From: Escherichia coli
Lineage (GTDB): Bacteria; Pseudomonadota; Gammaproteobacteria; Enterobacterales; Enterobacteriaceae
DNA: 64,000 nucleotides
Assembly: GCF_048403405.1 (NCBI RefSeq)
Contig: NZ_CP183129.1
Reading direction: 5' to 3' (one strand)
Made by a program: the position numbers and the translations under genes. Below, in pieces: positions 1 through 42,391 of this stretch (positions within the stretch are counted from its first letter, which is position 1; each line of letters begins with the position of its first letter). The notes beneath the pieces are model-generated. The model ran no database searches, had not been told where the DNA came from, and worked only from the letters and a program-made list of their open reading frames with translations.

Positions 1-158
1 GGTGATAGAAATAACTCACCATCCAGAGTTGAGAATCTCGGGGTGGCGAGACGTACAGGGTTCTCAACACCGGAGAGCAAAGAATCCGGCCCGACCGAAG
101 TCGGCCCCGTACGCCCCGCCATAATTCTGACGCGAAAAAGACGTGGCAATACAGTACG

Positions 159-286
159 CACAAAAAAACCGCTTGCGCGGTTATGCGCTTTGCTCTGTAT
201 CGGGTTGAGAATCCCGGCACCCGTTTTATGAGGTGCAGCGGAAATGTAACCTGACCGATTGAGGCATGGCAAGCGGTTTTTTTGTG
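159..286. repeat. 18-bp perfect inverted repeat pair (CACAAAAAAACCGCTTGC at 159-176, GCAAGCGGTTTTTTTGTG at 269-286) flanking 92 bp
   Basis: Read directly from the sequence; the two arms are exact reverse complements. Confidence 0.7.
160..183 (-). terminator. Terminator-like hairpin on the minus strand (AACCGC-GCAA-GCGGTT followed by T7)
   Basis: 6-bp stem, GCAA loop and a run of 7 T on the minus strand, about 120 nt downstream of the 305..604 ORF. It lies inside an open minus-strand frame, so its function is uncertain. Confidence 0.35.
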
Positions 287-1496: not shown

Positions 1497-1784
1497 TTAA
1501 TCTGCTTTCTGAATTTCAGCTTCTGAATCCATGCAAATAATTTCGATATAGGGTTCATTGCCATTAGCCTGGCGCGCTTTTTCAGCTTTGCTAATGATTT
1601 CTCGTACGGTCTGGTACGGAAGTTCCACAAGCAGTCGCGTGCCGTTCAGATAAACGTAAGTGGCTTCGTCGGCTCCGTTTTTACCCGCCGGAGCCACTCC
1701 ATCAATAGCGGATGCGCGTAATAACAGTTCACCGCGAAAATCAATAAAACGGATAAATACACCTTGTGCATGGTCTTTGGTCAT
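1497..1784 (-). CDS. hypothetical prophage early protein (95 aa; track ORF 1497..1844 trimmed to the internal ATG)
   Basis: The ATG at 1784 has an AGGTG Shine-Dalgarno and avoids a 50-nt overlap with the upstream ORF. The longer start at 1844 is less likely. Confidence 0.5.
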   Translation of the reverse strand: MTKDHAQGVFIRFIDFRGELLLRASAIDGVAPAGKNGADEATYVYLNGTRLLVELPYQTVREIISKAEKARQANGNEPYIEIICMDSEAEIQKAD

Positions 1785-1794
1785 AAAGCACCTG

Positions 1795-2136
1795 TTATAA
1801 ATCAGCCTGTTTAATAAAACTTTGTCCGCGAAGCAGACGATCAACCGTGCGTAGTGCTTCGTATAATGTGAAATCCTGCCCGAACTGATTTTCGCCGCTG
1901 CTTAGAGCAAAAATGCGGTTTCCAGTAAACGGGTTGCGTGGGCATTTGTGGACCACGATTCCAGCTTTCTCAATCAGCCAGGCATGCTCGCCGATTTGTT
2001 TTACTGGGTAGCCATCCGGCGTTGCGTGTGTATCACTCAGGCTGTAGCGGATGTTGCTGCGTGATGCACTGGTAGCGAAACGATTAGCGTGACGTTCAGC
2101 ACCATTACGAAAGCGTGAATTACGTTGCTGTTTCAT
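1795..2136 (-). CDS. hypothetical prophage early protein (113 aa)
   Basis: ORF whose ATG sits 1 nt after the stop of the preceding small ORF (TAAcATG). Confidence 0.55.
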   Translation of the reverse strand: MKQQRNSRFRNGAERHANRFATSASRSNIRYSLSDTHATPDGYPVKQIGEHAWLIEKAGIVVHKCPRNPFTGNRIFALSSGENQFGQDFTLYEALRTVDRLLRGQSFIKQADL

Positions 2137-2137
2137 G

Positions 2138-2245
2138 TTAAAGACTCTGTACAGATTTAATTATTCCGGCATAGCGGCCGAACTCAAAATATTTGCGATT
2201 AAATCGCATCGCATTGTTTTCACGTTGTGCGGACTGCTGGTTCAT
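2138..2245 (-). CDS. small basic peptide (35 aa, MNQQSAQRENNAMRFNRKYFEFGRYAGIIKSVQSL)
   Basis: Not in the ORF track. Its ATG overlaps the TGA of the upstream hydrophobic peptide as ATGA, and its stop is 1 nt before the next gene's ATG. Confidence 0.4.
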   Translation of the reverse strand: MNQQSAQRENNAMRFNRKYFEFGRYAGIIKSVQSL

Positions 2246-2349
2246 TTTCGTTTGCCTCCGCACATGAGAATTACGCCGCTTAAGAGGTAACCGAAGTTAA
2301 TTGATAGTATTACAATTAACATAAGGTCCAATTTGTCCATGCCACACAT
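2242..2349 (-). CDS. small hydrophobic membrane peptide (35 aa, MCGMDKLDLMLIVILSINFGYLLSGVILMCGGKRK)
   Basis: Not in the ORF track. A GAGGG Shine-Dalgarno sits 6 nt upstream of the ATG at 2349 (alternative in-frame ATG at 2361 and 2340). One hydrophobic helix followed by a basic KRK tail. Confidence 0.45.
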   Translation of the reverse strand: MCGMDKLDLMLIVILSINFGYLLSGVILMCGGKRK

Positions 2350-2388
2350 AATTACCCTCATTGCAGTAGTTGTGGTTTATCAGGTTTC

Positions 2389-2595
2389 TCACCCGATAAA
2401 CCAGATAACAAACGCTATAAACATCGCCCCAATAGCTGCCGGGAAAAGCCCTTTGGTATAAGCGGCGATATATTCAATGCTGAGTTCAATAAAGCGTTCT
2501 TCATGTCCCGTTAACTTACGAAACAAATAGATCGCTATTACGCCTATCTCAATAAAAACAAGGGTCAGAATGGCGCTGATGATATGGCTGGTCAT
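2389..2595 (-). CDS. small predicted two-helix membrane protein (68 aa) immediately downstream of cox
   Basis: ORF starting 6 nt after the Cox stop; two hydrophobic segments separated by a charged loop. Confidence 0.55.
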   Translation of the reverse strand: MTSHIISAILTLVFIEIGVIAIYLFRKLTGHEERFIELSIEYIAAYTKGLFPAAIGAMFIAFVIWFIG

Positions 2596-2601
2596 TTATG
2601 A

Positions 2602-2889
2602 CTAAAGCCCCAGCCACAACAACCATGCATCGCGGCGTTCTTTCGGTTGCTCAAAAAACGCTTTGCGCATGCCTTCGTTAAATGCTGGCAGATATACCCA
2701 GTTTTCTGATGCACGCGTCTTTACTGAACCTGGTTTCACAAAGTCAATTGTCGGTAGCTTTGCTGCGTCAATCATGGTTCTGACTGTGGATTCCTTGCGG
2801 CCGATCATCTTGGCGAATAGTTGATATGGCACCGCTTCAAGTGGATATGGTGCTACCTGAATGAAGCCCCCAAGCTCTGATTCGCTCAT
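2602..2889 (-). CDS. P2 Cox-like protein (excisionase / early-promoter repressor), 95 aa
   Basis: Recognisable similarity to phage P2 Cox (e.g. WVYLPA and WL.WLGL motifs) and divergent position next to the C-like repressor. Confidence 0.8.
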   Translation of the reverse strand: MSESELGGFIQVAPYPLEAVPYQLFAKMIGRKESTVRTMIDAAKLPTIDFVKPGSVKTRASENWVYLPAFNEGMRKAFFEQPKERRDAWLLWLGL

Positions 2890-2911
2890 TGTGGTAATCT
2901 CCCTAATTCGT

Positions 2912-2947
2912 TCGAATGGCTCAAAATGGCTTATATCGGCTTATTTG
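2912..2947. promoter_or_regulatory. three 10-bp-phased direct repeats (GGCTCAAAAT, GGCTTATATC, GGCTTATTTG) in the C/cox intergenic region: candidate operators
   Basis: GGCT recurs at 2918, 2928 and 2938. P2-type C repressors are known to bind direct repeats, so these are plausible operators; this is not demonstrated. Confidence 0.4.
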
Positions 2948-3002
2948 AGTGTTTTTATGTTTGTGCCCGATGTGGCATGTTGCGATGGAGGATATGCCCG
3001 AT

Positions 3003-3323
3003 ATGGCATCTTTGTCAAGCATGGGTGAAAAATTTCGCCTGATTCGTGAAGCAGAAGGTATGACCCGCCAGGAGTTTGCGGATTGTGTTGGGCTGCCTTA
3101 TGGGACGGTAACTAACTATGAGGTGAGGGGGAAGCAAGTAACAGAGGGTGCCTTACTTAAGGTTACGAAACACCCTAAATTTAAGAAATATGCTTATTGG
3201 TTATCAACAGATGAAACGATGCCGGAGGTTGGGCAAATTTCTCCGGCTCTCTCTCTTGATGGTTCCTGCAATTCGGAGGGAGATCGTGTTTCAACCGAAA
3301 CAATCCAAAAATTATCCCGCTGA
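3003..3323 (+). CDS. P2 C-like immunity repressor (HTH), about 106 aa
   Basis: Track ORF 2949..3323 trimmed to the ATG at 3003 (GGAGGA Shine-Dalgarno upstream). HTH region and C-terminal tail resemble P2 C (GLPYGT.., KYAYWL.., GQISPAL). Confidence 0.8.
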   Translation: MASLSSMGEKFRLIREAEGMTRQEFADCVGLPYGTVTNYEVRGKQVTEGALLKVTKHPKFKKYAYWLSTDETMPEVGQISPALSLDGSCNSEGDRVSTETIQKLSR

Positions 3324-10781: not shown

Positions 10782-11421
10782 GTTTCAGAATCGGTTAGTG
10801 GGCACGATCGTGCTGGTGGCGCTGGGGGTGATTGTACTTCCAGGGCTGCTGGACGGGCAGAAAAAACATTATCAGGATGAGTTCGCGGCTATCCCGCTGG
10901 TGCCGAAAGCGGGCGATCGCGATGAGCCTGATATGATGCCAGCCGCCACCCAGGCGTTGCCGACGCAGCCGCCGGAAGGCGCAGCGGAAGAGGTGCGGGC
11001 AGGTGATGCCGCAGCACCGTCGCTCGATCCGGCCACTATTGCAGCCAATAACACCGAGTTTGAACCGGAACCTGCACCGGTCGTCCCACCGAAGCCGAAA
11101 CCGGTGGAGCCGCCTAAGCCGAAGGTTGAAGCACCACCTGCGCCGAAGCCGGTCGTGGAAGAAAAAGCAGCGCCAACGGGTAAAGCCTATGTTGTACAAC
11201 TGGGCGCACTGAAAAATGCCGATAAAGTGAATGAGATTGTCGGTAAGCTGCGCGGTGCCGGTTATCGGGTTTATACGTCGCCATCCACGCCAGTGCAGGG
11301 TAAAATTACCCGTATTCTGGTTGGGCCAGATGCCTCGAAAGATAAGCTGAAAGGTTCGCTGGGTGAGTTGAAGCAACTTTCTGGCTTAAGTGGCGTGGTA
11401 ATGGGCTATACGCCGAATTAA
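10771..11421 (+). CDS. dedD: cell-division protein DedD (SPOR domain)
   Basis: GTG start giving ..ASKFQNRLVGTIVLV; proline-rich linker and C-terminal SPOR domain. Overlaps the folC stop. Confidence 0.9.
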   Translation: MASKFQNRLVGTIVLVALGVIVLPGLLDGQKKHYQDEFAAIPLVPKAGDRDEPDMMPAATQALPTQPPEGAAEEVRAGDAAAPSLDPATIAANNTEFEPEPAPVVPPKPKPVEPPKPKVEAPPAPKPVVEEKAAPTGKAYVVQLGALKNADKVNEIVGKLRGAGYRVYTSPSTPVQGKITRILVGPDASKDKLKGSLGELKQLSGLSGVVMGYTPN

Positions 11422-11424
11422 TAC

Positions 11425-11625
11425 GGTCTTGCCTGATGCGACGCTGGCGCGTCTTATCAGTCCTACGCAGGAGTAGAACCGTAGGTCGAATAAGGCGTTC
11501 ACGCCGCATCCGACAGCCGTTGCCTGATGCGACGCTGGCGCGTCTTATCAGGCCTGCGCAGGGGTAGAACCGTAGGTCGAATAAGGCGTTCACGCCGCAT
11601 CCGACACGCATTGCCCGATGCCGCA
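11425..11625. repeat. tandemly duplicated REP/BIME unit (~90 bp, two copies)
   Basis: GCCTGATGCGACGCTGGCGCGTCTTATCAG...CGTAGGTCGAATAAGGCGTTCACGCCGCATCCGACA occurs twice with a few substitutions. Confidence 0.85.
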
Positions 11626-11770
11626 AAGGCATAAAAAGTCGATGGCGTTGAATATTTTTTCAGCGCCATTTTTATTGATGCGTGGGAAGGAAATCCCTAC
11701 GCAAACGTTTTCTTTTTCTGTTAGAATGCGCCCCGAACAGGATGACAGGGCGTAAAATCGTGGAACACAT

Positions 11771-12259
11771 ATGGTCTGGATTGATTACGCCATAATCGCG
11801 GTGATTGCTTTTTCCTCTCTGGTTAGCCTGATCCGCGGCTTTGTTCGTGAAGCGTTATCGCTGGTGACATGGGGTTGTGCTTTCTTTGTTGCCAGTCATT
11901 ACTACACTTACCTGTCAGTCTGGTTTACGGGCTTTGAAGACGAACTGGTTCGAAATGGGATTGCCATCGCGGTACTGTTTATCGCTACCCTGATTGTTGG
12001 TGCTATCGTGAACTTCGTGATAGGCCAGTTGGTGGAGAAAACGGGGTTGTCAGGCACCGATCGGGTGCTGGGCGTCTGTTTCGGTGCGTTGCGCGGTGTG
12101 TTGATTGTTGCCGCCATTCTCTTCTTTCTCGACTCCTTTACCGGGGTGTCGAAAAGCGAAGACTGGAGCAAATCACAGCTGATCCCGCAGTTCAGTTTTA
12201 TCATCAGATGGTTTTTTGATTATCTGCAAAGCTCGTCAAGTTTCTTGCCCAGAGCGTAA
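11771..12259 (+). CDS. cvpA: colicin V production membrane protein
   Basis: 162-aa membrane ORF upstream of purF. Confidence 0.92.
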   Translation: MVWIDYAIIAVIAFSSLVSLIRGFVREALSLVTWGCAFFVASHYYTYLSVWFTGFEDELVRNGIAIAVLFIATLIVGAIVNFVIGQLVEKTGLSGTDRVLGVCFGALRGVLIVAAILFFLDSFTGVSKSEDWSKSQLIPQFSFIIRWFFDYLQSSSSFLPRA

Positions 12260-42339: not shown

Positions 42340-42391
42340 CCGAATTTCGATTAACGCTCAGTCTCTGACTGAGAAAACTGGAAGCATGCTA

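Follow-up and report, generated by a model that had tools for sequence, protein, structure and literature searches.

A two-unit BIME-2 array between dedD and cvpA of Escherichia coli and its copy-number variation across strains

In E. coli, BIME-2 elements consist of a z2 and a y REP with a short (S) linker between them and occur in multiple tandem copies, and the mark of BIME-1 elements is a long (L) linker with an IHF site (Ton-Hoang et al., PMC3333891). The number of tandem BIME-2 at a locus varies between strains (PMC3333891). RAYT (TnpA-REP) binds REPs through their conserved GTAG, which is needed for binding, cleaves iREP sites including TGCC^TGAT, a site found in z-type but not in y-type iREPs, and catalyzes strand exchange and BIME recombination in vitro, which the authors offer as an explanation of BIME copy-number variation (PMC3333891). 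The closest described array is REP325, a BIME-2 of six units between yjdM and yjdN, one z2-l-y unit of which defines naRNA4 (PMC4550694). REP325 acts as a dual stabilizer and attenuator, since yjdM mRNA is stabilized and the downstream yjdN is lowered ~8-10-fold, with a Rho dependence that is partial and seen for the full array only, and with effects that depend strongly on context (Harris et al. 2026 preprint). More generally, hairpins formed by REPs hinder 3'-to-5' decay and can cause attenuation of transcription (REP literature; Harris et al. 2026). As a rule, mRNA half-lives are not extended by terminal REPs, and two to four hairpins are insufficient for Rho-dependent termination (Harris et al. 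2026). According to Liang et al. (2015), as cited in PMC12306157, REPs lying <16 nt from a stop codon lower translation. REPs also serve as insertion sites: ATCAGGCCT^AC with a CT core is a published natural target of IS621, an IS110-family bridge-RNA recombinase (PMC11208160).

We have analysed a 64,000-nt stretch of E. coli DNA (hereafter, the window) in which an array of this kind lies in the gene order folC-dedD-cvpA-purF, as read from the list of open reading frames (ORFs). The gene names dedD and cvpA agree with those given by RefSeq at an identical locus of strain TUM14771, and the window DedD shows 98% identity to K-12 DedD, with a 4-aa indel. An initial annotation had placed near-identical tandem REP-containing units within 11425-11625, inside a dedD-cvpA gap of ~350 bp. 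Our measurements agree with it on each of these points. The gap is 349 nt, the array is correctly bracketed by these coordinates, and Tandem Repeats Finder reports a repeat of period 91 at 11429-11621 (2.1 copies, 93% matches, score 337), which a repeat search resolves into two in-register 91-nt copies with 93% identity, corresponding to six differences. The features of the locus are listed in Table 1. The array is neither a chance pattern nor an assembly artefact, because the z2-REP pattern is found in the 64-kb window at exactly the two array sites, with 0.00 matches expected from shuffles, and because the two-unit sequence recurs with 100% identity over 601 nt in six independent complete genomes. 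The K-12 RefSeq annotation lists no repeat feature in the dedD-cvpA gap, a literature search on this locus specifically returned nothing relevant, and in the supplement of Harris et al. (2026) dedD and cvpA appear solely as rows of a differential-expression table.

Table 1. Features of the dedD-cvpA region, in window coordinates.
Feature	Position	Strand	Basis and remarks
dedD CDS, 216 aa	10771..11421	+	ORF list; RefSeq annotation of the identical TUM14771 locus; stop TAA 11419-11421
7-nt spacer TACGGTC, dedD stop to array	11422..11428	+	Allele dissection
BIME-2 unit 1, 91 nt	11429..11519	+	Repeat search and allele dissection; internal-type junction CAGCCG at end
Unit 1 z2 REP, iREP orientation	11431..11467	+	36/37 to published z2; RNA hairpin predicted; CTAC 11463-11466
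Unit 1 short (S-type) linker between palindromes	11468..11480	+	Allele dissection; definition in PMC3333891
Unit 1 y REP	11481..11515	+	31/35 to published y; GTAG 11481-11484
naRNA4-like two-hairpin segment	11484..11554	+	Rfam RF02564, 75.1 bits against a gathering score of 59.5
BIME-2 unit 2, 91 nt	11520..11610	+	Repeat search and allele dissection; terminal-type junction CACGCA at end
Unit 2 z2 REP	11522..11558	+	36/37 to z2; CTAC mutated to CTGC at 11554-11557
Unit 2 y REP	11572..11606	+	31/35 to y; GTAG 11572-11575
Ancestral flank TTGCCCGATGCCGCAAAGGCAT	11611..11632	+	Unchanged in the zero-unit allele; related TGCCCGA..GGCATAAAA in Citrobacter
Intrinsic-terminator-like hairpin and T-run	11641..11677	+	12-pair stem 11641-11670, then TTTTATT
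PurR-operator-like box ACGCAAACGTTTTCTT	11699..11714	+	Exact 14-mer conserved with cvpA start; cvpA-purF promoter region
cvpA CDS	11771..12259	+	ORF list; RefSeq annotation of TUM14771; ATG at 11771

As for the identity of the units, which had been described as REP-containing BIMEs, they are formally BIME-2 with z2 and y REPs. Typing against the y, z1 and z2 reference sequences quoted in PMC11208160 gives clear assignments, the first palindromes matching y at 26-27 of 35 positions only, and the second palindromes (as reverse complement) matching z2 at 24 of 37, in comparison with the scores for their own types in Table 1. Within each unit the two palindromes stand tail-to-tail (CTAC ... GTAG) across a 13-nt linker, and a linker of 4-6 nt joins one unit to the next. 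No IHF core consensus is present on either strand between 11422 and 11640. The composition (z2 and y), the inverse orientation with an S linker and a tandem number that varies between strains thus all agree with the BIME-2 definition, and nothing essential separates the array from the BIME-2 family of E. coli, with which it shares alternating z2 and y, a short linker, tandem repetition, absence of the IHF-type L linker and strain-variable number. The array is a canonical BIME-2, made of tandem REP doublets.

The differences from the family consensus are local. The y REP of the window is a variant that reads GGTCGG...CCGACA for GGCCGG...CCGGCA, a compensated stem pair, and it additionally carries a lineage-specific G>A that produces an A.C mismatch in both y copies, flagged for unit 1 in the Rfam alignment. 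In the z2 REP of unit 1, a G>T at 11461 breaks one stem pair and the IS621 target. The palindrome-plus-GTAG signature of REPs is present, as GTAG or CTAC, in three of the four palindromes and absent from the z2 REP of unit 2, which has lost the conserved GTAG on the other strand because its CTAC has become CTGC. The z-type RAYT cleavage sequence TGCC^TGAT is present in the window units, where it coincides exactly with the unit boundary. Across strains, the z2 CTAC of the dedD-cvpA array reads CTGC or CTGT in many copies, and the y-REP GTAG is invariant in the 21 of 21 units compared.

Two other elements of the region can be set aside. The tail TTGCCCGATGC (11611-11621), responsible for the "2.1 copies" of Tandem Repeats Finder, was considered as a third, truncated unit and rejected: it is ancestral flank, which the zero-unit allele also has and of which Citrobacter has a related version. 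Similarly, small ORFs across the array (e.g., 11436-11567, 43 aa, Arg-rich) were rejected as coding sequences, since they correspond to the usual translation of REP palindromes; these ORFs cannot be conserved because copy number varies. Upstream, the Pro/Lys-rich linker of dedD itself holds a 24-nt imperfect tandem repeat (window 11076-11123). The window DedD (216 aa) is without four residues, PKPE, that are found in K-12 DedD (220 aa), and dedD is annotated with 651 nt in some strains and 663 nt in others, so this coding repeat varies in length as well.

The initial annotation had stated that copy number at such loci differs between strains and had proposed a comparison among E. coli genomes. 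This comparison, which we ran, uncovers 0 to 5 units, partial deletions and an IS621 insertion. The 601-nt locus query matched 5,425 of 5,426 complete genomes, with spans that vary by 91-nt steps. We measured copy number, n, from queries with the unique flanks, taking the span between them in each record as the array, and we derived frequencies from 120 sampled rows (two evenly spaced sets of 60, rather than all genomes). The one-unit state prevails, with 64% of rows, and is exemplified by K-12 MG1655, whose gap is 258 nt. It is followed by n=3 (12.5%; e.g., Ecol_542), n=4 (10.8%; e.g., O157:H7 EC4115 and DETEC-S589) and n=0 (3.3%; e.g., C1). The two-unit state, represented by the window and by strain 48, is rare at this locus, accounting for about 1-2.5% of rows, the value of 2.5% counting the window's own match twice. 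Off-register alleles make up 5% of the rows, and one strain carries a large insertion. The longest array, n=5, was found in E. coli 042, with a gap of 622 nt.

A single frame fits all examined E. coli alleles: 7 nt are followed by n units of 91 nt and these by a near-invariant tail of 160 nt, which is 161 nt in one strain. Every E. coli allele examined has the 7-nt spacer TACGGTC, in some cases with one base changed. Internal deletions also occur, since AJ5 has a 68-nt unit and LWY24 has units of 91 and 71 nt. O157:H7 strains are not uniform, with n=4 or n=3, mostly n=4, which shows that copy number changes within clones. The pair of units in strain 48 is unlike that of the window and is similar instead to the first and the last unit of the four-unit array of O157. 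Two-unit alleles have thus arisen more than once.

How the two-unit allele of the window came about can be approached through its relatives. The exact allele is found in 6 of the 5,426 genomes, and its nearest relatives, which show 0-2 flank differences in ~420 nt, have one unit that is identical to unit 2. All multi-unit alleles, together with the two-unit array of E. albertii, have the internal junction CAG(C/T)CG. By comparison, the last unit ends in CACGCA in every dissected E. coli allele but one, a one-unit strain with CACTCA, and most one-unit alleles also end in CACGCA. Units are slightly more alike within an array than between arrays (4.1 vs 5.3 differences). Strain 042 has an array-specific T in all of its internal linkers, and array-specific variants such as this one indicate concerted evolution. 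In the window, a lineage-specific G>A at unit position 61 is present in both units and in the single unit of the relatives. This shared A points to some exchange between the window units, by gene conversion or duplication.

These observations bear on whether the array is a recent, strain-specific tandem duplication of a K-12-like single unit, produced when the unit start slipped against the similar-looking flank TTGCCCGATGC. The flanking direct repeat, identical at 10 of 11 nt, could support such slippage, the allele is rare (6 of 5,426 genomes), and the lineage-specific A at position 61 is in both units, all of which would be expected. However, a recent duplication predicts identical units joined by CACGCA, and the window has six differences and the junction CAGCCG, the same as in arrays of three, four and five units and in E. 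albertii. Moreover, six substitutions in 91 nt are implausible next to 0-2 flank differences in ~420 nt. We consequently judge this particular scenario very improbable, and on sequence grounds a new duplication of any kind looks unlikely. The term "tandem duplication" used in the initial annotation holds as a description of the copy-number state, but not as a recent event, given that the relatives' single unit corresponds to unit 2 and that the CAGCCG junction is old.

The two-unit allele is instead most likely what is left of an older multi-unit array, through retention or contraction. Its history would not be that of a pure old remnant, since the position-61 A in both units points to recent exchange. 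In the simplest history, the lineage would have had at least two units, most members would have lost unit 1, and six genomes would have kept it. Loss of unit 1 in the relatives would take one crossover within the 32 identical leading bases. More broadly, recombination or slippage between near-identical units would add or remove exactly 91 nt at a time, and RAYT-catalyzed strand exchange might contribute. The bracketing 10/11-nt direct repeat TTGCCYGATGC could also allow loss of a whole array. Since E. albertii and almost all E. coli carry the array, a precise secondary loss between these TTGCCYGATGC repeats best accounts for the zero-unit allele, an ancestral empty site being the less likely alternative.

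Downstream of the array, the sequence is near-invariant in E. coli. The first 11 nt of the flank TTGCCCGATGCCGCAAAGGCAT mimic the unit start (10/11), and a small hairpin is predicted at 11618-11632. TGCCCGA...GGCATAAAA stands directly before the terminator in both E. coli and Citrobacter, which is why the apparent partial third copy is assigned to the ancestral flank. The element at 11641-11677 has the G+C hairpin and T-run of an intrinsic terminator, the REPs themselves being without a T-run, and is presumed from its sequence to be the end of the folC-dedD transcript. Further downstream, ACGCAAACGTTTTCTT is a box that we take to be a PUR box from the known pur regulon. It is not part of the repeat and marks the downstream edge of the variable zone. 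A sigma-70 promoter scan of 11300-11850 yielded no site. The 14-mer of the PUR box and the cvpA start form a pattern that we found in at least 120 Enterobacterales genomes. Among the matches listed, the 14-mer and the first cvpA codons are exactly kept from Escherichia to Yersinia, Photorhabdus, Proteus and Providencia.

What lies between the dedD stop and the terminator differs from one genus to another. With the end of dedD in outgroups located by tblastn using the DedD C-terminus, the terminator motif is present in 61 of 66 Enterobacteriaceae-like orthologous gaps among the matches listed, and the spacer between dedD stop and terminator ranges, among the same listed matches, from 26 to 493 nt. 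In Citrobacter this spacer has its own single y-like REP or a z+y pair, in Enterobacter cloacae it has an unrelated 60-nt palindrome of the CCCTAACCC type, and in Trabulsiella there is almost nothing. Read from these sequences, the stretch from dedD stop to terminator is a recurrent landing pad for repeats, apparently colonized independently in different genera, with the terminator and the PUR box fixed.

In E. coli B25FEP, an IS621 is inserted in the dedD-cvpA BIME (positions 1624-3160 of the B25FEP locus), exactly at ATCAGGCCT^AC of a z2 REP. In this respect the locus is like the REP sites known to be targeted by IS621. The 11-nt IS621 target ATCAGGCCTAC with its CT core occurs in K-12 and in B25FEP. 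The z2 copies of the window deviate from it by one base each, its two sites (11456-11466 and 11547-11557) reading ATCAGTCCTAC and ATCAGGCCTGC, and no IS element is present at the window array.

As for RNA, the REP hairpins are predicted to form in the transcript, with z = -4.85 in comparison with shuffles. Rfam additionally reports a naRNA4-like segment, which is composed of the y REP of unit 1, the junction linker and the z2 REP of unit 2 and which exists only because at least two units are present. The match exceeds the gathering score on the dedD-sense strand, the antisense strand scoring 51.5 bits, below it. Both hairpins of naRNA4 are aligned, and the linker has a 6-nt deletion with respect to the RF02564 model. 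The number of matches per allele is n-1, the one-unit allele of K-12 having none. The likeness to REP325 goes further, as the window array has the same blocks, lies in a 3' UTR between co-directional genes and is in sense to the upstream gene. It departs from REP325 in having two units rather than six, a y-to-z2 linker that is 6 nt short of the model's "l" linker, and a conserved intrinsic terminator after it.

One might therefore ask whether the unit junction encodes a functional naRNA4-type RNA, which would bind HU and condense DNA, so that strains with at least two units would gain a noncoding RNA gene. This would fit with the score of 75.1 bits against 59.5 on the dedD-sense strand only, with the n-1 relationship that leaves one-unit K-12 with no match, and with naRNA4 being by definition the z2-linker-y unit of a BIME-2 array (PMC4550694). 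However, the match restates the BIME-2 junction, and any BIME-2 with at least two units would score. The linker is shorter than in RF02564, and 64% of the sampled genomes have n=1 and hence no junction. Moreover, the HU/nucleoid function of naRNA4 is itself disputed by later authors, the original senior author among them (Harris et al. 2026 preprint), in whose study no ternary HU-naRNA4-cruciform complex was found, deletion and overexpression caused no change in the nucleoid, and the RNA was present at ~1-2 copies per cell. We regard a functional naRNA4 at this junction as very improbable. The label of sRNA gene was rejected for 11484-11554, the RF02564 match being a BIME-2 junction and the HU/nucleoid function being contradicted by later work. 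A practical implication is that Rfam naRNA4 matches count BIME-2 unit junctions and should not be turned into sRNA-gene annotations without further evidence.

We favor a more local role. Lying after the dedD stop codon and before a conserved terminator of the same strand, the array should form part of the transcribed 3' UTR of dedD, and we infer that the folC-dedD transcript runs through it. An influence of such units on mRNA stability, also raised in the initial annotation, is described in the literature for REPs in general. The first hairpin starts 9-11 nt after the dedD stop, which ends at 11421, with the consensus stem at 11431 and the predicted stem at 11433. The first z2 REP consequently falls within the positional rule of Liang et al. 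2015 (stem <=15 nt after the stop), as does the first REP of all alleles with n>=1. As the stop-proximal REPs of Liang, Rudd and Deutscher (2015) are presented in PMC12306157, the likeness of the first z2 hairpin to them is one of position only. Once transcribed, the hairpins would slow 3'-to-5' decay of dedD mRNA and would add some attenuation ahead of the terminator, and the stop-proximal first hairpin may reduce DedD translation. Going from one to two copies, these effects would probably change only slightly. The conserved terminator hairpin may already protect the 3' end, making the REPs redundant.

Whether selection uses this variation is a separate matter. In an adaptive scenario, each lineage would owe its n to selection, either for a suitable DedD level or for protection of the PurR-controlled cvpA-purF promoter against read-through from folC-dedD. 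A characteristic n per lineage (n=1 in K-12 derivatives, mostly n=4 in O157:H7), the constant placement of the first REP within 15 nt of the stop in n>=1 alleles, and the ~8-10-fold attenuation of downstream transcription by REP325, with full arrays being partly Rho-dependent, are all consistent with it. However, neutral inheritance also predicts a lineage-specific n, and a conserved intrinsic terminator already parts the two operons across genera, with or without REPs. Natural isolates include zero-unit, partly deleted and IS621-disrupted alleles. As drift predicts, GTAG is missing from some z2 copies, and stems show uncompensated mismatches. Together, these alleles and the lost GTAG and stem pairs argue against strong constraint, and we consider such adaptive tuning unlikely.

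Another possibility is that the array works chiefly as DNA, by offering DNA gyrase a strong binding and cleavage site, in which case gyrase loading between the co-directional operons would rise with the number of units. An association of gyrase with BIME-2 was reportedly described by Espeli and Boccard in 1997. The BIME-2 architecture of the array would suit this role, and gyrase is listed among the proposed REP functions (PMC4550694), but zero-unit strains are viable. We think a primarily gyrase-directed role improbable.

We instead favor, as the most likely role, that of semi-selfish repeat DNA: recombination would let the copy number drift, and any effect on dedD mRNA or protein would be local and no more than modest. 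Taken as a whole, the interpretation of the locus as a BIME-2 array in the dedD 3' UTR that behaves like a minisatellite, with a two-unit allele that is likely an old remnant and with REP-type effects that are local, appears to us very likely to be correct. BIME-2, REP polymorphism, REP effects in 3' UTRs and the targeting of REPs by IS621 are all already known biology. The significance of the locus beyond annotation is thus little, and it is a clean example of a known phenomenon, a minisatellite of 91-nt steps with 0-5 copies. It is nevertheless usable as a strain-typing marker, and the natural allelic series from n=0 to n=5 with near-identical flanks could test the model in which REPs are local 3'-UTR dials.

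A bolder version of that model would be that strains with at least two units make an extra structured 3'-UTR module, the y-linker-z2 double hairpin with naRNA4 architecture, and that n is a heritable, reversible and stepwise dial. We find this doubtful, a proposal with a low probability. If it were true, n could set dedD decay intermediates, DedD output or read-through toward cvpA-purF, and the expression of a cell-division gene and of a purine-synthesis operon would vary naturally with no change in promoter or coding sequence.

Elsewhere in the window, Rfam returned three other matches at gathering level. A C4 antisense RNA (78.5 bits, window 39-126, minus strand) and the Hfq-binding RNA isrK (63.1 bits, window 162-236, minus strand) form a pair at the window edge, which suggests a prophage remnant of P1/P7 or P4 type. 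A nuoG RNA motif (50.3 bits, window 42342-42384, plus strand) fits with the nuo operon present in the window.
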